From an uncultured bacterium (GTDB lineage: Bacteria > Krumholzibacteriota > Krumholzibacteriia > Krumholzibacteriales > Krumholzibacteriaceae): a stretch of DNA of 64,000 nt. Below the pieces are notes generated by a model, which was not told the DNA's origin, ran no database searches, and saw only the letters and a program-made list of their open reading frames with translations. How positions within the stretch are numbered: position 1 is the stretch's first letter; each line of letters starts with the position of its first letter. The position numbers and the translations under genes are program-made. The stretch covers positions 1,180 to 65,179 of the forward strand of contig CAWFAD010000011.1 of assembly GCA_963813815.1 (NCBI GenBank), in the 5' to 3' direction. Positions 2,984 through 63,599 of the stretch are shown here, piece after piece.

Positions 2984-3877
2984 ATGGCGCTCTGCGACAT
3001 CTGTCCGCGCGGCTGCGGCGCCGATCGAGCCGCCCGCGCGGGATACTGCCGTTCGGGAGAGGGGCTCGAGATCGCTTCGATCTGCCGCCATCGCGGCGAG
3101 GAGCCGGCGCTCTCGGGGAGGCGCGGCATCTGCAACGTGTTCTTCGCGCACTGCAACCTGCGGTGCGTGTTTTGCCAGAATCACCAGATCAGCCGCAACG
3201 AGTCCCCCGCCGGTGGCATGGCTCTCGAAGCGGCGGTTCGCGCGATCGTCGACGAGCTCGACGCGGGCGCGACGCACGTCGGCTTCGTCTCCCCTTCGCA
3301 TATGATCCCCCAGATGAAGCGGGTGATCGCCGCCGTCCGCGAAACCGGGCGCGCCCCCGTCGTCGTCATGAACACGAACTCCTACGACCGCTGCGAAACG
3401 ATCGCCTCGCTCGAGGGCCTCGTCGACGTGTATCTCCCCGATTTCAAGTACCTGGACGAGCGCCTCGCCCGCGAGCTCTCGGACGCCCCCGATTATCCCG
3501 CCGTCGCGCTCGCCGCGCTTCGCGAGATGCACCGCCAGAAAGGGTCGAATCTCGCGATGCGGGAGGACGGCACCGCAGCCTCCGGGCTCATCATCCGTCA
3601 CCTCGTTCTCCCGGGGCAGGTCGCGAACAGCGTCGACGTGCTCCGGGCGATCGCCGAGGAGCTCTCGACCTCCGTCCACCTTTCGCTCATGTCCCAGTAC
3701 TATCCGCCCGAAGCGGCCGCGGGGCGCCCGCCGCTCGATCGAACGCTCGCCGAGGATGAATACGAGACGGTGCGCGCGGAGATGGAACGGCTCGGTTTCC
3801 ACCGAGGGTGGATTCAGGAATGGGGGAGCGCCATCGCGTACCAGCCGGATTTCACGAGGCCGCATCCGTTCGAGTGA
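2984..3877 (+). CDS. radical SAM protein, PflX/AmrS-like (pyruvate formate-lyase activase family)
   Basis: CNLRCVFCQN CxxxCxxC motif preceded by an N-terminal Cys-rich stretch (CDICPRGC...YCRSGEG...ICRHRGEEP), typical of PflX/AmmeMemoRadiSam-type activases. Confidence 0.65.
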   Translation: MALCDICPRGCGADRAARAGYCRSGEGLEIASICRHRGEEPALSGRRGICNVFFAHCNLRCVFCQNHQISRNESPAGGMALEAAVRAIVDELDAGATHVGFVSPSHMIPQMKRVIAAVRETGRAPVVVMNTNSYDRCETIASLEGLVDVYLPDFKYLDERLARELSDAPDYPAVALAALREMHRQKGSNLAMREDGTAASGLIIRHLVLPGQVANSVDVLRAIAEELSTSVHLSLMSQYYPPEAAAGRPPLDRTLAEDEYETVRAEMERLGFHRGWIQEWGSAIAYQPDFTRPHPFE

Positions 3878-3892
3878 ACGCGGCTCGTCCCG

Positions 3893-5599
3893 CTACTTCG
3901 CCGCGCGGGATCTCGGCGCGTGCGCGCGGCGGGAGCGCCTGACCTCTTCCTTGATCCGCTGCACGTGCCCGCGGCCGAGCGCCTTGACCTCGCAGCCGAG
4001 CTCGAAAAAGCGGCGTATCTTCGCGTCCGGGAGGATCCCGTAGCAATCGATCACGGCGACCGCCCTGCCCGCCTTGCGCACCACCCAATCGGGGTCGAGG
4101 GCGAGGTACGGCTCGTGGGGGACGGCGAGGATGACCGCCTCGACGCCCCGCAGCTCCTTCGCCAGATCCTTTCCCACGCGCGCGTTTCGCAGCTCGCCCT
4201 GATTGCGGAAGAACCGGCTCCACGAATGACCCGGCGCGGGATACGTGTCCTGGCTCTCGAGCTCGTACCAGTGCTCCACGTAGGGATCGTGGATGCGCAT
4301 GAAGGCTCCCATCTCGGTGAGCTTGCGGACCACGAGCTCCGATCCGCTGTAGCGCGTGTCGCCGACGTCCTGACGGTAGCTCGCGCCGCAGATGAGGATC
4401 TCGGCGCCCGCGATGTAACGCCCCATGTTGCGGAGGGCGTCCCGCGCCATCTCGGCGACGTGAAGGCCGCGCGTGTCGTTGATGTCGATGGCGGACGGCG
4501 TGATCTTGAAGATCCTGTCGCCGTCCTCGAAACCGAGGATGTGCTGGTACGCCCAGTAGCCGAGTCCGCCGTCCTTCGGGAGGCAGTAGCCGCCGATCCC
4601 GGGGCCCGGAAAGATCATGTTGCTGTGCGTCGGGCGCATGCGGATCGCATTGATGACCTTGATGAGGTCCACGCCGTTGCGCTCGGCGAAGTGGCTCCAT
4701 TCGTTGAGAAAGGCGAGGATCGTCGCGCGGTAGCTGTTCTCCACGATCTTCGTCGTCTCGGACTCGATGGGACGGTCCATGACCGTGAGGGGGAAGTCCC
4801 GCGTGTTGAGCACCTCGCGGAGAAAGCGCTCGACGCGGCGCGTCGCCTCGGCGTTGCAGCCCGAGCAGACGCGCCAGAAATCCCGGATGCTCCGCACGTA
4901 TTCGCGGCCCGGCATCACGCGCTCGAAGCTGTGCGCGAGGAGCGGCGCCGTGCGGATGCGGCGCTCGGCGAAGGCGCGTTTGAGTATGGGCCATACGATG
5001 AACTCCGTCGTTCCGGGGGCGACCGTCGTCTCGATGAGGACGAGGCAGCGCGGAGGTATCTTATCCCCGACGGTCCGCATCGTCGCCTCGAGAGCCGCCA
5101 TGTCGGCCTCGCCGGTGCGCATGTCGCCGAGATCGTTTTTGAGATAGTCGCACTGGACGTCGATCACGACGCAGTCGGCGAATTTCAGGCAGTCGCTGTC
5201 GAAGGTGGCGGTGAAGGTTTTTTTCTTCTGCACCGTGCGCTCGATGATCTCGGCGACTTCGGGGTCCTCGGCCTTGACGGGCGCCGTGCCGCGGTTGAGA
5301 ACCGGAATCTTCCAGTAGCTTCGTGTGCTCGGCCGCTGGCAGCCGATGACGAACTTGCTCGGGTGGCCCTTTTTGTTCGTCGTGTCGGCGATGATCGCCG
5401 CCATGACGACGCCGACGAAGCCGACGCCCATGACGACGACGATCTCCTTTCCCTCGCCGCGCGCTTTTTTCGCGAGCCGTTCGACGCGCCGGTATTCGGG
5501 CGCGTACTCGCCGGGGAGGGGAAGAGGGAATCGCTCGCCGTCGGGGCTCGCGGAGTAGCTCGCGGCGTCCGGAGGATGAATGTCGGTTTTCTTCGCCAT
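3893..5599 (-). CDS. nucleotide-sugar dehydrogenase (UDP-glucose/GDP-mannose dehydrogenase family), long form
   Basis: 568 aa. GVGFVG Rossmann motif near the N-terminus and conserved catalytic-region similarity (GGYCLPKD). Other long ORFs here (3920..5635 +, 3852..4994 -) are low-complexity Arg/Pro-rich and overlap this gene. Confidence 0.65.
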   Translation of the reverse strand: MAKKTDIHPPDAASYSASPDGERFPLPLPGEYAPEYRRVERLAKKARGEGKEIVVVMGVGFVGVVMAAIIADTTNKKGHPSKFVIGCQRPSTRSYWKIPVLNRGTAPVKAEDPEVAEIIERTVQKKKTFTATFDSDCLKFADCVVIDVQCDYLKNDLGDMRTGEADMAALEATMRTVGDKIPPRCLVLIETTVAPGTTEFIVWPILKRAFAERRIRTAPLLAHSFERVMPGREYVRSIRDFWRVCSGCNAEATRRVERFLREVLNTRDFPLTVMDRPIESETTKIVENSYRATILAFLNEWSHFAERNGVDLIKVINAIRMRPTHSNMIFPGPGIGGYCLPKDGGLGYWAYQHILGFEDGDRIFKITPSAIDINDTRGLHVAEMARDALRNMGRYIAGAEILICGASYRQDVGDTRYSGSELVVRKLTEMGAFMRIHDPYVEHWYELESQDTYPAPGHSWSRFFRNQGELRNARVGKDLAKELRGVEAVILAVPHEPYLALDPDWVVRKAGRAVAVIDCYGILPDAKIRRFFELGCEVKALGRGHVQRIKEEVRRSRRAHAPRSRAAK

Positions 5600-5760
5600 G
5601 GGGATACCTCCCGGTTCGGGACGGGCTCATGGTAGCACGGGAGACCGCCGGAACCAAGGGGCGCTTTGGCGCCGCGGAGCGGAAGGATCGCGTTCATATT
5701 TCTTTTGCGCGGCGCTCGGCGGCGAGTGTATGATTCGCCGCGAAGGGGGCGCATCCGAAT

Positions 5761-6096
5761 ATGAAAGAGCCTTCGCACGACGATATCCGCGGGAAAGCTC
5801 TCGAGCTCGGCTCGCTCGCGGATTACCAGACGGGCGCCGTCGTGAGCCGGACGCTCGTCGACAAGAAGATCGGCACGATCACGATTTTCTCGTTCGACAA
5901 GGGGCAGGGCCTGAGCGAGCACACCGCGCCCTACGACGCCTTCGTCTACGTCGCGGACGGGGAGGCGGAGATCACGATCTCCGGAAGAGAGCTCCGGGCG
6001 CGGCGGGGAGAGATCGTCGTCATGCCGGCCGGCGAGCCCCATTCGCTTCACGCGGTCGAGCGCTTCAAGATGTTGCTCGTCATGATCCGCGCGTGA
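5761..6096 (+). CDS. cupin-domain protein
   Basis: 111 aa. Small beta-barrel pattern with GEAEITISG...GEIVVMPAGEPHSLHAV, typical of the cupin_2 family. Confidence 0.55.
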   Translation: MKEPSHDDIRGKALELGSLADYQTGAVVSRTLVDKKIGTITIFSFDKGQGLSEHTAPYDAFVYVADGEAEITISGRELRARRGEIVVMPAGEPHSLHAVERFKMLLVMIRA

Positions 6097-6115
6097 AGGG
6101 CGGCGAAGAGCTTCG

Positions 6116-7342
6116 TTGCGCTTCGCTCCGGCCCCGGTTATACTCGAGCTCGTCTCGGCCGCCGCGGCGCGCCGCGCCGGCCCGCCGGTATGGGTGTGGT
6201 GCAGGGGAGGTGGGGTCGTGGTTTGTTCTCCTATCGCTCGTCGTATCCTCGACATCGTTTCCGCAAAGGGCGTCTCTCCGGGCGCGTGGTCCGAGGCGCT
6301 CGGCCGTATCCCCCTCGACGACGTCGCGGGCATGCTCGCATCGGCCGAGGGGCGCGAGCGTCTGAGCCGCATCCTCGAGCGCCCCGTCGCGGCGCCCGAT
6401 CCGGCGTTCGTCGAGGAGCAGCTCCGGCGTCTCGAGGCGGGAGGGTACGGCCTCGTGTCGATCCTCGAAGAGAAATATCCGCGGCTCCTGCGCGAGATTC
6501 ACGAGCCGCCGCCGGTTCTCTTCTACGCGGGGGATATCGCGGCCCTCTCGAGGCCCGCTCTCTGCGTCGTCGGATCGCGCCGCGCGACGAGACGCGGCCT
6601 CATCGCCGCGCGGGAATTCGCGCGGGGGCTCTCGGACCTCGGATTTCACGTCGTGAGCGGCCTCGCCCGCGGCATCGACGGCGCGGCGCACGAGGGAGCG
6701 CTCGGCGGGGCGGGGGGCACCTCGGCCGTTCTCGGCTCCGGCATAGACGTCGTTTATCCGCCCGAGCATCGGAGTCTCGCCGCGCGCATGCTCGAATCGG
6801 GATGCATCGCGTCGGAGTTTCCGCTCGGCACCGAGCCCTTCCGGTACAACTTTCCGCGAAGGAATCGCGTTCTGAGCGGCGTCTCGCTCGGGGTCGTCGT
6901 CGTCGAGGCGGCGCTCGAGAGCGGAGCGATGGGCACGGCCGGGTGGGCGGCCGATCAGGGGCGGGAGGTCTTCGCGGTCCCCGGGCCCATAGACGATCCG
7001 CGAAGCCGCGGTCCCCACAAGCTCATCCGCGACGGCGCCCATCTCGTCGAGTCGCCGGGCGACGTCGCCGCCGCCCTGGGAGGCGAAGTGGCGGGATCGC
7101 GGTTCCGCGGGACGGCGCCGGGCGAGCGACCCCGCGAGGCGCCGCAGAGCGGACTTTTCGACGGCGACGAGCGGCGCGTGCTCGAGGCCCTCGATCTCGA
7201 CCCGAAACATATTGATGAGCTCGTGGAATTCTGCCATATTCCTCCCGCGATTATTCTGCCGATTCTCCTCGCCCTCGAGATGCGGGGCGTAATCGTATCG
7301 TGCGGGAGTGGCACGTACGCGCTCGCCGCGCCGGCTGGCTGA
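6116..7342 (+). CDS. dprA: DNA-processing protein DprA (Smf)
   Basis: Conserved DprA Rossmann-like core (LCVVGSRRATRRG...VVSGLARGIDGAAHEGAL...VLGSGIDVVYPPEH...NFPRRNRVLSG) and a C-terminal winged-helix tail. The true start may be an internal GTG (6194 or 6218). Confidence 0.75.
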   Translation: MRFAPAPVILELVSAAAARRAGPPVWVWCRGGGVVVCSPIARRILDIVSAKGVSPGAWSEALGRIPLDDVAGMLASAEGRERLSRILERPVAAPDPAFVEEQLRRLEAGGYGLVSILEEKYPRLLREIHEPPPVLFYAGDIAALSRPALCVVGSRRATRRGLIAAREFARGLSDLGFHVVSGLARGIDGAAHEGALGGAGGTSAVLGSGIDVVYPPEHRSLAARMLESGCIASEFPLGTEPFRYNFPRRNRVLSGVSLGVVVVEAALESGAMGTAGWAADQGREVFAVPGPIDDPRSRGPHKLIRDGAHLVESPGDVAAALGGEVAGSRFRGTAPGERPREAPQSGLFDGDERRVLEALDLDPKHIDELVEFCHIPPAIILPILLALEMRGVIVSCGSGTYALAAPAG

Positions 7343-58619: not shown

Positions 58620-60374
58620 TTACTGAATCTCCCTCGACTGCTCGTCGAAAAGGACGCGGTAGAGGCCGCCCGCCTGATAGAGCGTGTTGTGCGTGCCCGA
58701 CTCGACCAGCCTGCCTTCGCTCAGCACGAAGATACGGTCCGCGTTCGTCACGCTCGTGAGGCGGTGGGCGATGATGATGACGGTTTGGCCTCTCACCTTC
58801 TCGAAGTAGCTCCCGAGCACCTGCCGCTCCGTGCGCGGATCGAGGGCGGAGGTGGCCTCGTCGAGGACGTGGATGCGGGGCGCCTTGAGGAGCGACCGCG
58901 CGAGCGCGAGCCGCTGGCGCTCTCCGCCCGAGAGGCGGAGCCCCTGCTGGCCGACGATCGTCTCGAGCCCCTCCGGCAGATTCGCGAGAAACTCCCCGAG
59001 AGAGGCCGTCTCCATGGCCGCGACGAGCTCCGCCTCCGTGGCCCGCGGCCGGGCCATCCGCAGGTTCCCCGCGATCGTGTCGTGAAACAGCTGCGTCTCC
59101 TGCGGAACGACGCCGATCGCGCGGCGGAGGCTCTTGAGCTTCCAGCGCCTGAGGTCGAGATCGTCGATGTAGACCGCGCCTTGCTGCGGATCGAGGTAAC
59201 GGGCGATGATCGCGGCGAGCGTGGATTTGCCGCTTCCCGAGGGACCGACGAGCGCGATCACCTGCCCCGGCTCCACCGAGAGACTGATATTCTCTATCGC
59301 CCTCGCGCCGTTGGGCCACGTGAGGCCGACCTGCTCGAGGCGGATCGCGCCCGTGACGCGGGGCGGCGCCGTCGCCTCCGCGTGCTCCTGAATCTGCGGT
59401 TCCGTGTCGATGAGGTCGTACACTCGGGCGAGCGACGCCCTCGCCATCTGGAGCTCGATGTTGATGTCGATGAGCTGCGAGATCGGCCGGTAGAGACGGC
59501 TCGCGAGCGTGTAGAACGCCACGAGACTGCCGAGGCTGAGCGTTCCGCCGAGCACCCGTCTGCCTCCCATGAGAAATACGAGGATAAAGGCGCCGGTCGA
59601 CATGACGTCCGCGAGCGAGACTTGTCCCGCGCCGATCACGGAGAGGGCGAGGTTGCTGCGGATCCACGGCCGCGACACGCGGACGAGGCGGCGGGTCTCG
59701 GCCTTCTCCCGGATAAGTTCCTGAACGAGGCGGATGCTCGAAATCCGCTCCTCGAGAAACGAGAAGAGGTCGGAGATCGCGTCCCTCGCCTTGATTCCCT
59801 CTTCCTGAATGCGGTGGTTGATTTTCGCGAGGATGGCGACGAGGAACGGATAGACGAGGAGGAGCAGGAGCGTGAGGCTCGGATCGATCCAGAAGAGGAT
59901 CGTCAATATCCCGACGATCGTCAAAACGTCCTGAATCGCGTTGACGATCGTGTGGGCGGCCGCGTGCTGGAGCACGTCGATGTCGGAGCTGATTCTCGCG
60001 AGTATGTCGCCCGTCTGCTCTCCGCGGAAGAAGAAGGGGGAGAGGCGTTCGACGTGCTCGAAGGCCTGCCGGCGGTAGTCGAAGAGGATCCGAAGCCCCG
60101 AGTAGCTGTAGAGCCAGACCGAGATGAGACGGAATCCCGTGCGAAAGACGAGCACGCCGAGAAGTATGGACACGAGCATGAGAAGAAGCGAGTAGTTGCC
60201 GTCGCCGATCGCGCGGTCGATGATGGTTCGCAGGATCAGCGGATCGATCAGGTTGAGAAAGACGTTGATGATGAGGCAGACCGCGATTTCGGCCTGAAGG
60301 CCGTAGTAGGGGCTCACGCGCTCGCGGAGGAAGCGCCGCAAGAGCCCGCGTCGGCTGGGATTCGCCTGTTTCAT
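58620..60374 (-). CDS. ABC exporter (fused 6-TM permease + ATPase), bacteriocin/type I secretion-like but without an N-terminal C39 peptidase domain
   Basis: 584 aa. TM domain from residue about 20. Walker A GPSGSGKST, signature LSGGERQRLALAR, Walker B IHVLDEATSALD. Confidence 0.8.
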   Translation of the reverse strand: MKQANPSRRGLLRRFLRERVSPYYGLQAEIAVCLIINVFLNLIDPLILRTIIDRAIGDGNYSLLLMLVSILLGVLVFRTGFRLISVWLYSYSGLRILFDYRRQAFEHVERLSPFFFRGEQTGDILARISSDIDVLQHAAAHTIVNAIQDVLTIVGILTILFWIDPSLTLLLLLVYPFLVAILAKINHRIQEEGIKARDAISDLFSFLEERISSIRLVQELIREKAETRRLVRVSRPWIRSNLALSVIGAGQVSLADVMSTGAFILVFLMGGRRVLGGTLSLGSLVAFYTLASRLYRPISQLIDINIELQMARASLARVYDLIDTEPQIQEHAEATAPPRVTGAIRLEQVGLTWPNGARAIENISLSVEPGQVIALVGPSGSGKSTLAAIIARYLDPQQGAVYIDDLDLRRWKLKSLRRAIGVVPQETQLFHDTIAGNLRMARPRATEAELVAAMETASLGEFLANLPEGLETIVGQQGLRLSGGERQRLALARSLLKAPRIHVLDEATSALDPRTERQVLGSYFEKVRGQTVIIIAHRLTSVTNADRIFVLSEGRLVESGTHNTLYQAGGLYRVLFDEQSREIQ

Positions 60375-61441
60375 CGCTTCTTCGTCCCGGCGAGCCTTTC
60401 GATGAGGAGGTGGCCGAGAGAGACCTTCTCATCGACGATGATCCGCGCCTGCCCTTTCATTCCGTCATAGAGCGGGCCCGGCGCGGTCGAGGGGTCGAAG
60501 GACACCTTTACGGGAAAGCCGCCGCCGCTCCGGCAGTCGTCCACGAAATCGAGCCGCCCGGCGAGGGTGCCGTGGAGAAGCCAAGGGTATCCCTCGAGCC
60601 GGATTTTGACCCTGTGTCCGGGACGCGCGGAGGCGCGGCCGGCGTCGAAGACGGCGCCCTCGAAGCGGTCGGCCGGGCCGGTCGAGAGGCGCAGTATCTC
60701 CTCGCCGCGCGTTACGGTTCGTCCCATGAGCTCGAAGAGGTTCGCGCCGAGCACGATCCCCCGGGTATCCGCCGCGAGCGTGTCGAGGGCGAGCATGCGG
60801 TCCGTTTCACCCACAGCCGCGCGCTCCTCGGCGATTTGCCCGGCGAGATTCCGAATTTCCCCGTCGAGCTTCTCGATTTGGTCCCGATGCCGCGCTTCGA
60901 GCACGGGGCCCGCGGCCTCGGCTTCCTTGAGCGCCACCCGGGCGAGATCGAGGGCGAGCTCGGAATCCTGAAGCTCCAGCTTCGTCGTGAGCCCCATGTC
61001 CCAGAGCTGCTTCTTGAGATCGAACTGTATCTCGGCGCTCGAAAGCTCGAGCCGGCTCCGCTCGAGATCCCGCGAGGCTTGGAGAACCTCGGCGGGGTGG
61101 ATCTGCGAGGCGAGTCGCCCGCGCTCGGCTCGGAGCACGACGATGCGGTCCGACAGGTTCGCGATCCGCGCCCTGATCTGCTCGTCCTGCGCGCGGAGCG
61201 GGGAGGACTCGAATGCGACGAGCGGCGCGCCGGCCCTAACGCTGTCCCCCGGCGCCACGAAAATCCCTTCGACGCGGCCTTCCCACGGCGCATACACAGC
61301 GACGGTGCCGCCGGCGAGACGGCCCTCGGCGATGACGACCCGGTCGATTCGCACAAAGAGGAGGAGACAGACCACGGCGACGAAAAGGCAGGAGCCGAGC
61401 GTCAAAAGGGGACGCAAAAGAGGCAGTGGGCGACGATGCAT
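60371..61441 (-). CDS. HlyD-family membrane fusion / secretion adaptor protein
   Basis: N-terminal TM anchor, biotinyl/lipoyl-like hairpin, long coiled coil and a C-terminal beta domain. The stop overlaps the ABC gene start (ATGA). Confidence 0.8.
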   Translation of the reverse strand: MHRRPLPLLRPLLTLGSCLFVAVVCLLLFVRIDRVVIAEGRLAGGTVAVYAPWEGRVEGIFVAPGDSVRAGAPLVAFESSPLRAQDEQIRARIANLSDRIVVLRAERGRLASQIHPAEVLQASRDLERSRLELSSAEIQFDLKKQLWDMGLTTKLELQDSELALDLARVALKEAEAAGPVLEARHRDQIEKLDGEIRNLAGQIAEERAAVGETDRMLALDTLAADTRGIVLGANLFELMGRTVTRGEEILRLSTGPADRFEGAVFDAGRASARPGHRVKIRLEGYPWLLHGTLAGRLDFVDDCRSGGGFPVKVSFDPSTAPGPLYDGMKGQARIIVDEKVSLGHLLIERLAGTKKR

Positions 61442-61499
61442 AAACCTCGCCGTGGGGTTAGAAGACTATTAACTGCGGTCGCGGCCTCGGAGCTTCGAC

Positions 61500-61610
61500 T
61501 CAGAGAGGGCCGATTTCGCACGCGGGCGGATACTCGGCGCACTGCATGCAGTGCGTGAGCGGCGGTTTCACGTGCGCGATGTTCGTGGAATGCTTGACGA
61601 CGAACTTCAT
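61500..61610 (-). CDS. candidate RiPP precursor peptide 1 (36 aa): MKFVVKHSTNIAHVKPPLTHCMQCAEYPPACEIGPL
   Basis: RBS GAGGTG 7 nt upstream. One of six paralogous small ORFs sharing the MKFVVK N-terminus and the T-x-C-x-x-C-x-E-x-P-x-x-C C-terminal motif. Below the ORF-track size cutoff. Confidence 0.6.
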   Translation of the reverse strand: MKFVVKHSTNIAHVKPPLTHCMQCAEYPPACEIGPL

Positions 61611-61705
61611 TTATTTTCACCTCTTCGATGGGACGAAGTGGCGCGGTCGCAGGGACCGCGCCACTCGCCGAGCCATATCGATCGACGATTATCGAGAAAT
61701 CGCGA

Positions 61706-61813
61706 TCAAATGGGGTCGATGACGCAGGCTGCCGGATTCTCCTTGCAGAGCCAGCACAGCGTATAGTTGACCCTCTTCGCCACCTCGGCGTTACGCTTTA
61801 CGACGAACTTCAT
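61706..61813 (-). CDS. candidate RiPP precursor peptide 2 (35 aa): MKFVVKRNAEVAKRVNYTLCWLCKENPAACVIDPI
   Basis: RBS GGGAGGG upstream. Same family motif. Confidence 0.6.
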   Translation of the reverse strand: MKFVVKRNAEVAKRVNYTLCWLCKENPAACVIDPI

Positions 61814-61859
61814 TGTTTCCCTCCCTTCCCTTTCCTTGCCCGTACGGGCTCACCTGGCG

Positions 61860-61958
61860 CTAGAAGCAGAATATGGGGTTTTCCGAGCACTGGGCGCAGC
61901 GGGTCGTGGGACCATTATGCGGTCCGACGCCGTTACGGCCGAGAACGATGAACTTCAT
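61860..61958 (-). CDS. candidate RiPP precursor peptide 3 (32 aa): MKFIVLGRNGVGPHNGPTTRCAQCSENPIFCF
   Basis: RBS GAGGAG upstream. Same family motif. First gene after the putative internal operator/promoter. Confidence 0.6.
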   Translation of the reverse strand: MKFIVLGRNGVGPHNGPTTRCAQCSENPIFCF

Positions 61959-62016
61959 GAGGATCGCTCCTCTCGCAACGATTGGAGATACGGCAGCCGA
62001 AATTTAGAGAGTCCCT

Positions 62017-62033
62017 TGAACAATCAGTTCAAA
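62017..62033. promoter_or_regulatory. perfect palindrome TTGAAC-aatca-GTTCAA in the gap between precursor genes 4 and 3 (candidate operator or internal promoter element)
   Basis: Read directly from the sequence. Lies in the only long (about 250 bp) spacer inside the peptide array, about 75 bp upstream of the peptide 3 start codon. Confidence 0.3.
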
Positions 62034-62106
62034 AATAACCCTTTAATTTTGTCATAGAGCGCGGCGGGAGTCAAGGTATTTGGGAGTGGCCCGCGGAAAG
62101 GGAAAT

Positions 62107-62130
62107 GGCGCGCTCCCGGAGGAGCGCGCC
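62107..62130 (-). terminator. GC-rich hairpin GGCGCGCTCC-cgga-GGAGCGCGCC downstream of precursor gene 4 (possible attenuator or partial terminator)
   Basis: 10-bp perfect stem with a 4-nt loop. On the minus strand it is followed by a pyrimidine-rich ATTTCCCTTTCC stretch. A second, weaker hairpin (AGCACTT...AAGTGCT) lies at 62149-62174. Confidence 0.35.
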
Positions 62131-62209
62131 ATTCCATGGCGCATTCTCAGCACTTCGGAAATCCGCAAAGTGCTTGCGGGCACCGATGCTCATCGCGCGC
62201 CGGCTCCGA

Positions 62210-62308
62210 TCAGTAGCAGGCGAGTGGATTCTCCTTGCAGAGAAAGCACATTGTGATCCTCGGCATGGCCGATTTGCGCGTCTCGGCGGGCTTTACGACG
62301 AACTTCAT
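62210..62308 (-). CDS. candidate RiPP precursor peptide 4 (32 aa): MKFVVKPAETRKSAMPRITMCFLCKENPLACY
   Basis: RBS AAGGAGGTG upstream. Same family motif. Followed by two hairpins. Confidence 0.6.
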   Translation of the reverse strand: MKFVVKPAETRKSAMPRITMCFLCKENPLACY

Positions 62309-62349
62309 ACTTCACCTCCTTACGATGAACTTGATGTGTTCCCCCTCGC

Positions 62350-62466
62350 TCACTCGCACCAGTGCGGGTCTTCCGAGCAGAGGGCGCAGAGCGTATGTCT
62401 CGGAATAACGCCATCCGAAGGCTTCGCATGGCGCGTTTCGGGGTTTGATGTCACGATGAACTTCAT
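62350..62466 (-). CDS. candidate RiPP precursor peptide 5 (38 aa): MKFIVTSNPETRHAKPSDGVIPRHTLCALCSEDPHWCE
   Basis: RBS GGAGGAG upstream. Same family motif. Confidence 0.6.
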   Translation of the reverse strand: MKFIVTSNPETRHAKPSDGVIPRHTLCALCSEDPHWCE

Positions 62467-62486
62467 AGCGCCTCTCCTCCCTATTA

Positions 62487-62591
62487 TCACTCTTCGCAGG
62501 CGCGGGGCTCCTCATGGCAAAGCCAGCAGCGCGTCAAATGAGTGGAATTCGATCCGCGCGTCCCGAGCAACGGCTTCACGACGAATCTCAT
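62487..62591 (-). CDS. candidate RiPP precursor peptide 6 (34 aa): MRFVVKPLLGTRGSNSTHLTRCWLCHEEPRACEE
   Basis: RBS AGGAGGG upstream. Same family motif. First gene of the array, next to the divergent promoter region. Confidence 0.6.
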   Translation of the reverse strand: MRFVVKPLLGTRGSNSTHLTRCWLCHEEPRACEE

Positions 62592-62687
62592 GAGTACCCT
62601 CCTTTCCCCTAGGCTGAATTGGATGCTGAATTCGTTAAGCTTGACATATATGAAATAAGCTGTCAACATATTTAACGTGAGACTGTT
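62592..62687. promoter_or_regulatory. AT-rich divergent intergenic region between precursor gene 6 and the ATP-grasp gene, with TTGACA and repeated TGACATAT / CAACATAT half-sites flanked by GTTAA...TTAAC
   Basis: TTGACATATATGAAATAAGCTGTCAACATATTTAAC is read directly. It is the only strongly AT-rich spacer in the cluster and sits between divergent transcription units. Confidence 0.3.
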
Positions 62688-63599
62688 ATGGAAAAAGAGA
62701 TAATCCTCGTCGGAATTCCCGGATCGGGTCTCGCGAGGGAGATTGCCGCGCATCTCAGCGGCACTCTTTTTACTCCGAGGATCCTGTCCGTCGACGCGCC
62801 CTTCGAGGGGCGGGCGGTGACGTTTGCTCCCGGGACCATCGTGTGGGAAGGGGTCGAGCTGCTCGAGGCGAGCGCCATATTCGCGGAGTGTTCGGTATTC
62901 AACTGGCCGCAGGCGCTCCTTCCCTTCGAAAACGATTCCAGTGGGCTCGCGTATAAGGAATGGGCCATCTTCCAGCGGGAGGCGCGTTCGCTCGTCGTAT
63001 CCTCGCTCTGGGCGGCGGGGAGGGAGCGCCCGATGATAAACCCGCCGTCCGCGGCTCACCTCGCTCTCTCGCCCTCGATAGCGCTCGATTATCTGAAGCA
63101 AGCGGGGATCCAGGTCCATCCGTGGAGCGTCGAATCGGCTCCGCCGGATGAAGGGGCGGGAGCGGGGTTGGTTCTCGATGTCTGCGGGCGCGAGCGCTGG
63201 CATTCCCCGCGCCGGCCGCCGGCCGGCGACCCGGCTCTCGTGCTCGAGCCGCACGATAATGAGGTCGTGACCTTCATGGTCGCGGGCGGCTCGGTCCTCG
63301 GAGCGCTTCGCTACGCGCGAGGGGAATCGTGGGCGAAACGGCAGACGGGATCGATCGGGGCGGATGAGCCCGGGCTCACGATCGATCTCGCGCCTTTTTC
63401 CGAAGCGGCCGACCTCGCGAAACGCTCGACCGAAGCGCTCGGGCTCGTTTTCGCGGCGGTATCCGTTCGCGCGGGCGCTCATCCCCCCTCGGTCATGCTC
63501 GTCGAGGCGAGCCCCGATCTCGAATCATGGAACGCGAAACTCGCGGGGCGCGTCGCGCGCTCCCTCGCCGATTGTCTCGTCGCCGCGGCCAGCTCCTGA
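62688..63599 (+). CDS. ATP-grasp-like (RimK-type) protein, candidate peptide maturase
   Basis: 303 aa. An N-terminal pre-ATP-grasp-like region is followed by a C-terminal region resembling the RimK ATP-grasp core (...LGLVFAAVSVRAGAHPPSVMLVEASPDL...). The usual E-x-N metal motif appears as E-A-S, so catalytic competence is uncertain. Confidence 0.45.
   Translation: MEKEIILVGIPGSGLAREIAAHLSGTLFTPRILSVDAPFEGRAVTFAPGTIVWEGVELLEASAIFAECSVFNWPQALLPFENDSSGLAYKEWAIFQREARSLVVSSLWAAGRERPMINPPSAAHLALSPSIALDYLKQAGIQVHPWSVESAPPDEGAGAGLVLDVCGRERWHSPRRPPAGDPALVLEPHDNEVVTFMVAGGSVLGALRYARGESWAKRQTGSIGADEPGLTIDLAPFSEAADLAKRSTEALGLVFAAVSVRAGAHPPSVMLVEASPDLESWNAKLAGRVARSLADCLVAAASS

Follow-up and report, generated by a model that had tools for sequence, protein, structure and literature searches.

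What is the role of the 251-nt gap (61959-62209) that lies between the fourth and the third of six precursor-peptide genes, and does it divide the array into separately expressed units? The genes belong to a 64,000-nt stretch of DNA that was analysed as a whole and is called the window here. Named pep6 to pep1 in transcription order (Table 1), they encode products of 32-38 aa that form one family with the common motif M[KR]F[VI]V...T-x-C-x-x-C-x-E-x-P-x-x-C, and a HlyD-type adaptor and an ABC exporter follow. Upstream of the array, on the other strand, are genes for a 303-aa protein of unknown family and for a radical-SAM/SPASM maturase, which is cut by the window end and which, as far as it goes, resembles most the Clo7bot-type maturase TIGR04334. 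Pfam and NCBIfam have no model that matches any of the six peptides or the 303-aa protein, and exact-sequence look-ups of HlyD and peptide 3 returned no identical record.

From 6->5 to 2->1, the spacers of the array measure 20, 41, 251, 46 and 95 nt, with 58 nt between the last peptide gene and HlyD. The initial annotation had placed all spacers other than the gap at 20-50 bp and had read the gap, of about 250 bp, as the boundary between two units, formed by an attenuator and an operator-controlled internal promoter. The size of the gap agrees with our measurement; the 2->1 spacer, at 95 nt, is longer than had been claimed and holds a hairpin of its own. A gap ORF lacking the family motif had also been reported, and the gap ORFs that we find are 37-43 aa long and all motif-less. 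A decayed peptide gene in the gap was considered and rejected, there being no self-blastn similarity and no family motif in these ORFs.

Table 1. Features of the peptide array and its surroundings in the window, in the order in which the array is read, followed by the 5' arms of hairpins from the window and from related loci.
Feature	Position	Strand	Description
Main divergent promoter core	62641-62666	both	palindrome TTGACA-N14-TGTCAA
pep6	62487-62591	minus	precursor-peptide gene 6; carries family motif
pep5	62350-62466	minus	precursor-peptide gene 5; carries family motif
pep4	62210-62308	minus	precursor-peptide gene 4; last gene upstream of gap
Weak 7-bp stem	62149-62174	minus	AGCACUU/AAGUGCU; overlaps alternative CCGCAA/UUGCGG pairing
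H1	62102-62135	minus	15-bp GC stem, UCCG loop, core UGGCGCG...CGCGCCA
AT-rich island	61973-62090		60-nt GC minimum 0.30 vs 0.65 for the window
P2 (putative promoter)	62074-62046	minus	-35 TTGACT (62074-62069), 17-nt spacer with TGa, -10 CAAAAT (62051-62046)
Palindrome	62016-62032		TTGAAC-aatca-GTTCAA; perfect 6+6 inverted repeat, -7.3 kcal/mol as stem-loop
pep3	61860-61958	minus	precursor-peptide gene 3; first gene after gap
pep2	61706-61813	minus	precursor-peptide gene 2; family motif
H2	61631-61669	minus	sister hairpin of H1, in 95-nt 2->1 spacer
pep1	61500-61610	minus	precursor-peptide gene 1; family motif
HlyD-type adaptor	60371-61441	minus	downstream of array, same orientation
ABC exporter	58620-60374	minus	downstream of array, same orientation
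5' arm, L006 hairpin			CCUGGUGGCGCGG
5' arm, L007 hairpin			CCUGGCGGCGCGG
5' arm, L004 hairpin			GGGUGGCGCGCC
5' arm, window H2			GAGUGGCGCGGUC
5' arm, window H1			GGAAUGGCGCGCUCC

Two sister hairpins in the array

On the transcribed strand, a stable GC stem-loop (H1) begins 74 nt past the pep4 stop codon, and a second one (H2) begins 37 nt past the stop codon of pep2 and ends about 20 nt before the pep1 start codon. H1 had been described as a 10-bp hairpin at 62107-62130; it is present and larger than that, with 13 perfect pairs (62104-62116 / 62121-62133), or 15 pairs when the stem is followed across 62102-62135. None of 200 shuffles was as stable as its predicted fold (-31.1 kcal/mol, z -7.0), and the low energy of the whole 4->3 spacer (-100.2 kcal/mol, z -3.9 against shuffles) is mainly owing to this one element. 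H2 folds at -31.9 kcal/mol (z -4.7) and its arms resemble those of H1. The shared core, TGGCGCG-N(4-24)-CGCGCCA, occurs only at these two sites in the 64 kb against 0.09 expected, which fits a locus-specific element rather than a genome-wide repeat. A REP- or MITE-like repeat was rejected on the same count, as both copies in 64 kb fall within the peptide array. An integron attC-like or CRISPR-like array was likewise dismissed: the hairpin is pure GC without an attC core, and what is repeated here are genes.

If counting starts at the conserved CGCGCCA core, the tail of H1 reads UUUCCCUUUCC and that of H2 CUUCGUCCCAUC; the full 15-bp stem of H1 pairs the first three U of its tail, leaving CCUUUCC. 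Neither hairpin has at least 5 U in 8 nt directly 3' of its stem, and a terminator scan flagged neither. An Rfam scan of 61300-62800 at E <= 10 gave as its best result a sub-threshold match on the hairpin, which scored 21 bits where the gathering score is 80 (E 0.78). A possible anti-terminator pairing just upstream of H1 (GCGCCA/UGGCGC) extends over 6 bp only, is missing at H2 and in the relatives, and was taken as chance.

The gap was also said to hold a second hairpin at 62149-62174, placed after the GC hairpin in transcription order. The stem found there is weak (z -1.0, with 38 of 200 shuffles as good) and precedes H1 in the transcript; the equivalent pre-hairpin segments of related loci give z values from -0.2 to -3.0, which makes it an inconsistent feature. 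As for the division of the array into two units, a hairpin does stand in the gap, but that division is too simple, as H2 is present too and both must be leaky. Because pep1 and the exporter can be reached only by read-through of H2, the hairpins are better seen as leaky punctuation than as boundaries of units.

Conservation of the hairpin in related clusters

Among 5.8 billion proteins, only three are homologous to the 303-aa neighbour, and scans of genome and metagenome collections added a few more. The two-peptide loci fall into four distinct versions (L001/L002/L005, L004, L006 and L007/L008), all of which keep the layout of 303-aa gene, divergent peptides and HlyD-ABC, with two peptide genes only, A and B. 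The A-B spacers are 122-145 nt long, and in each of the four versions a single GC hairpin dominates the spacer (-27 to -39 kcal/mol; z from -4.6 to -7.0), with GGCGCG in its 5' arm (Table 1). Every related locus retrieved has hairpins with this core, placed either between its peptide genes or behind them, and the perfect stems of H1, H2 and the relatives' hairpins run to 13-17 bp. Among homologous loci the GC hairpin is kept, the palindrome is absent from the 9 searched, and the second hairpin of the initial annotation is inconsistent.

The outer and inner stem positions vary among loci yet remain paired. RNAalifold finds double-sided (compensatory) changes in 8 of 14 stem pairs. In a model-guided alignment, 85.7% of stem cells pair, compared to 35-54% when the partners are slid by 1-3 columns, and the observed pairing and covariation values were matched by 0-1 of 500 shuffles. 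Because the set comprises six distinct sequences and the alignment was fitted to the model structure, we regard the covariation as supportive, not conclusive. A covariance model built from the six returns H1 (44.9 bits) and H2 (44.8 bits) in the window and nothing else above noise. It also detects weaker copies in the spacers between the last peptide gene and HlyD of L006 (E 0.003) and L001 (E 0.08), and in L004 a U-tailed hairpin lies 36 nt before HlyD. As a separate observation, in the minimum-energy folds of three A-B spacers (L001 3455-3599, L006 2913-3041, L004 793-923) the Shine-Dalgarno region of peptide B is paired to the bases that directly follow the stop codon of peptide A (UUCUCCC / CCCUCU), a predicted pairing that hints at translational coupling and that is absent from the 4->3 spacer of the window.

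A profile of the six window peptides retrieves 85 cluster representatives at 50% identity, and one made from a wider alignment of 22 peptides retrieves 352 clusters at 90% identity. None of these clusters is named, no Pfam or NCBIfam model covers the family, and a literature text search did not find its core motif strings. In its broader form, taken over the window and L001, L004, L006, L007 and L010-L012, the motif reads M-K-F-I/V-V ... T-x-C-x-x-C-S-E-D/N-P-x-x-C. The family co-occurs with a radical-SAM/SPASM enzyme, a RimK-like ATP-grasp protein, a protein of about 300 aa of unknown family and a HlyD/ABC exporter, and it looks like an uncharacterised RiPP class. In some members, namely P0009 (71 aa) and P0077 (65 aa), two cores are fused into a single precursor, so that the T-x-C-x-x-C-x-E-D-x-x-x-C module is present twice in one peptide.

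A larger array is found in L010, with 12 peptide genes (3648-7070) and the same set of enzymes, RimK-like, radical-SAM and 320-aa proteins. Its spacers measure 280, 189, 11, 169, 24, 95, 491, 53, 442, 63 and 22 nt, so that long and irregular spacers appear to be normal in large arrays of this family. The covariance model finds four hairpin copies in L010, after peptides 1, 7, 9 and 12, one example being AACGCCCGGCGGCGCGCUC...GCAUGCCGCCGGGCGUU at -34 kcal/mol. T-tails follow the copies in the DNA (TTTTGTAT or TTTTTT; UUUUGUAU or UUUUUU in RNA), they are flagged as terminator-like, and the last hairpin ends 23 nt before the HlyD start codon. Equivalent hairpins without U-tails are found in the high-GC loci L011 and L012, and likewise in L001 and L006. 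In addition, an AT-rich motif beginning TTTTTTGTATATATCACGG is repeated before four of the L010 peptide genes, where it may represent internal promoters or terminator tails.

The U-tails on the L010 homologues and on the pre-HlyD hairpin of L004 argue for termination as at least the ancestral role of the element. Where genes start only 20-36 nt behind a hairpin, as pep1 does behind H2 and HlyD does in L010 and L004, there is no room for a promoter and the hairpins must be leaky; from this spacing we infer read-through of hairpins of the H1/H2 type. At H1 and H2 themselves, termination and pure 3'-end protection or processing look alike, because a proper U-tract is absent. There is a coherent case that the hairpin would be an ancestral functional feature of the cluster family, originally at least an intrinsic terminator. 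The best reading of H1 is that of an attenuator, or a hairpin that stabilises the mRNA, conserved in the family, and the attenuator proposed earlier is upheld to the extent that relatives keep the GC hairpin, with the reservation that H1 carries no canonical U-tract.

A putative internal promoter in the AT-rich island

Between H1, which ends at 62102, and pep3, which starts at 61958, lies the 136-nt segment 61959-62094 with its AT-rich island, the second-deepest GC trough near the cluster; the deepest is the main divergent promoter region (62583-62731). The island holds a sigma-70-like match, TTGACT-N14-TGa-CAAAAT (P2), about 28 nt after H1 and 88 nt before the pep3 ATG. Its hexamers stand in the right orientation upstream of a gene and within the 16-18-nt spacing of sigma-70 promoters, with 9 of 12 consensus matches and a TG-extended -10. 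The whole 64-kb window has 20 sites that satisfy the criteria applied to P2, two of them with TG, and in shuffles of the 136-nt segment a promoter-like match arose in 4.8% of cases, and one with TG in 0.12%.

The main divergent promoter offers a template for comparison. Its palindrome reads as a -35 with a TGn-extended -10 both ways, towards the peptide array and towards the 303-aa gene. In L003 (15-40), the homologous gene is preceded by the same TTGACA-N14-TGTCAA palindrome, which is again flanked by AAGCTTGACA, L004 has the same spacing, and L001, L006 and L007 carry TTGACA/TTGATG-17-TAAAG[TA] at the equivalent promoter position. The pattern TTGAC-N15-TGNCAR, which was defined after three of the sequences had been seen and for which L003 is the sole independent confirmation, occurs in the 64 kb at P2 and the main promoter only, against 0.05 expected, and recurs upstream of homologous genes in L003 and L004. 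No homologue of the AT-rich segment was found in the relatives; local alignments to their spacers (z <= 2.7) and to the main promoter region do no better than shuffles, except for the hairpin itself.

On these sequence matches, an internal promoter at P2 is plausible, with chances that are perhaps even. The internal promoter claimed for the gap is thus retained as a sigma-70-like match in an AT trough with the architecture of the main promoter, and the operator control attached to it is dropped. A Bacteroidota-type -33/-7 promoter via TATTTTTG at 62037-62030 was also considered and set aside, since no upstream TTTG stands at a suitable distance and the main promoters of the family are sigma-70-like. 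Separately, contigs with an identical 303-aa protein and ABC exporter (runs ERR12035938 and ERR15459710) break at about 62061, inside the spacer of the putative internal promoter, and at about 60800, inside HlyD; the shared breaks suggest strain-level variation in the segment from pep3-pep1 to the HlyD N-terminus.

Possible explanations and known parallels

There are several possible explanations for the gap. In the one that we favour, with moderate confidence, transcription of the array would start at the divergent promoter near 62660 and follow the minus strand, and H1 and H2 would be copies of a GC-rich stem-loop kept after precursor genes in this family of radical-SAM peptide (RiPP-type) clusters. 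Each hairpin would most likely terminate leakily (as an attenuator), protect the 3' end of a processed transcript, or do both, and transcripts of upstream precursors would exceed those of downstream precursors and of the HlyD/ABC exporter. P2 would probably boost transcription of pep3-2-1 and the exporter. The palindrome would lie in the 5' leader of the P2 transcript and most likely be incidental, at most a small 5' stem-loop, not an operator.

The alternatives differ in what they make of the AT-rich part and of the hairpins. One combines H1 as attenuator with the palindrome as the operator of a dedicated regulator, which would gate the internal promoter and place pep3-2-1 and the exporter under separate control. 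The perfect palindrome reported for the gap is there, one base off the 62017-62033 first given, and at about +8 to +24 of a transcript starting at P2, just downstream of the -10, it occupies a frequent repressor position. However, shuffling the 71-nt AT-rich segment produces a perfect inverted repeat with 6-bp arms (spacer 0-10) in 10% of cases, and shuffling the 136-nt segment does so in 26%, and the window averages about 1.07 per 136 nt, so the palindrome is not a statistical anomaly. When TTGAAC-N5-GTTCAA was sought throughout the 64-kb window, the gap held the sole exact copy, with no second one at 0-1 mismatches and two 2-mismatch matches elsewhere. The palindrome is absent from the 9 related loci searched and from the main promoter, and no regulator gene is visible beside the array within the window, which leaves operator control very improbable. 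Another alternative takes the gap, the hairpin aside, for a rearrangement scar from tandem duplication or peptide gene loss, with a functionless AT-rich part. Signs of such a history exist: weak DNA similarity, hinting at an old duplication of about 490 nt, is seen between pep4 and pep2 and between pep5 and pep3, which are offset by 490-495 nt, and between H1 and H2, for which the offset is 468 nt. The 5->4 spacer (62317-62336, minus) contains a relic peptide 5' end, ATCAAGTTCATCGTA, in which ATC AAG TTC ATC GTA spells I-K-F-I-V, its former ATG now being ATC; the relic continues into the pep4 Shine-Dalgarno and is the apparent footprint of a lost array member. These traces suggest that the six-gene array grew from a peptide-peptide-hairpin unit by tandem duplication and decay. 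L010, in which two 436-nt spacer copies (5331-5765, 6121-6555) are 93% identical, shows the same duplication process in recent form, arrays growing by whole peptide-plus-spacer units. Nevertheless, leftover peptide-gene similarity is not detectable in the gap, and an AT trough with a correctly oriented -35/TGn/-10 match is unlikely as a random leftover; we consider a scar an improbable explanation of the gap.

For the hairpins, a further possibility is that they serve only in processing or stability, as an RNase III or RNase E site or as a block to 3' exonucleases, so that a polycistronic mRNA would be cut into segments with differing half-lives, with no termination and no internal promoter needed. 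Such a role would suit the lack of a U-tail at H1, at H2 and in the high-GC loci L001, L006, L011 and L012, as well as perfect stems long enough for a double-strand-specific nuclease and the continued need to express the genes directly behind the hairpins. The textbook U-tails in L010 and on the hairpin between the last peptide and HlyD in L004 speak against it, and termination and processing can coexist. A role confined to stability therefore has some chance of being right, though we think it unlikely. More speculative, and distinctly doubtful, is the idea that the GGCGCG-core hairpin is a sequence-specific cis-element of this radical-SAM RiPP family that sets the precursor:precursor ratio within the array, for example when bound by a cluster-encoded or host RNA-binding protein or nuclease; if true, it would be a new conserved RNA motif tied to a new class of peptide natural products.

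The favoured explanation, with leaky or stabilising hairpins and a booster promoter, has parallels among known systems. Imperfect terminators after RiPP precursor genes, damping the downstream transcripts, are described as the commonest strategy, and internal start sites are reported as well (PMC7113386). The cinnamycin cinA-cinM attenuator has been shown by S1 mapping (PMC5408092), and, as there and at btmD-btmE of the bottromycin cluster (PMC7113386), the GC inverted repeat here follows directly on precursor genes with downstream genes still needed; a role in the stoichiometry of precursor versus enzyme or exporter is proposed for attenuators of that type and for this one. Unlike those examples, the window hairpin is known from its sequence, stands between precursors in a multi-precursor array, is present in two copies and lacks a U-tract, and its GGCGCG stem core is kept across loci whose proteins are only about 45-57% identical. 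The established mccA-mccB terminator of microcin C (PMC6495379) likewise places a hairpin between a tiny precursor ORF and the operon genes, giving an abundant short precursor transcript plus read-through. Its termination is ribosome-coupled on a 7-codon ORF near the hairpin, whereas the window hairpins lie 37-74 nt past the stop codons and nothing suggests ribosome control.

For P2, the closest likeness is the internal start of bottromycin btmD (PMC7113386), in which an extra promoter inside the operon adjusts precursor genes that are not the first; P2 differs in being predicted from a -35/TGn/-10 match and in that it would drive three precursors and the exporter, not one precursor. The lack of a U-tract also has a precedent. 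In GC-rich Streptomyces, Term-seq places GC stem-loops without U at transcript 3' ends with intermediate read-through (PMC8269248), and H1 and H2 resemble these 'I-shaped' terminators, or HS-U-lack ends, as very stable GC stems without a U-tail in a 65% GC genome. That class was defined experimentally, by Term-seq in Streptomyces, whereas the window hairpins are recognised by their letters.

With this locus, a regulatory design that is already known gains a further example, here in a RiPP family that appears to be undescribed. As attenuators and internal start sites are already well documented in RiPP operons, it leaves the general picture unchanged. If confirmed, it would show graded expression along a multi-precursor RiPP array, with upstream precursors above downstream precursors and these above the exporter, the grading being achieved by repeated leaky hairpins and a booster promoter. 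This would be useful for the heterologous expression of this radical-SAM peptide family, and the hairpin would provide a searchable RNA signature for finding more such arrays.
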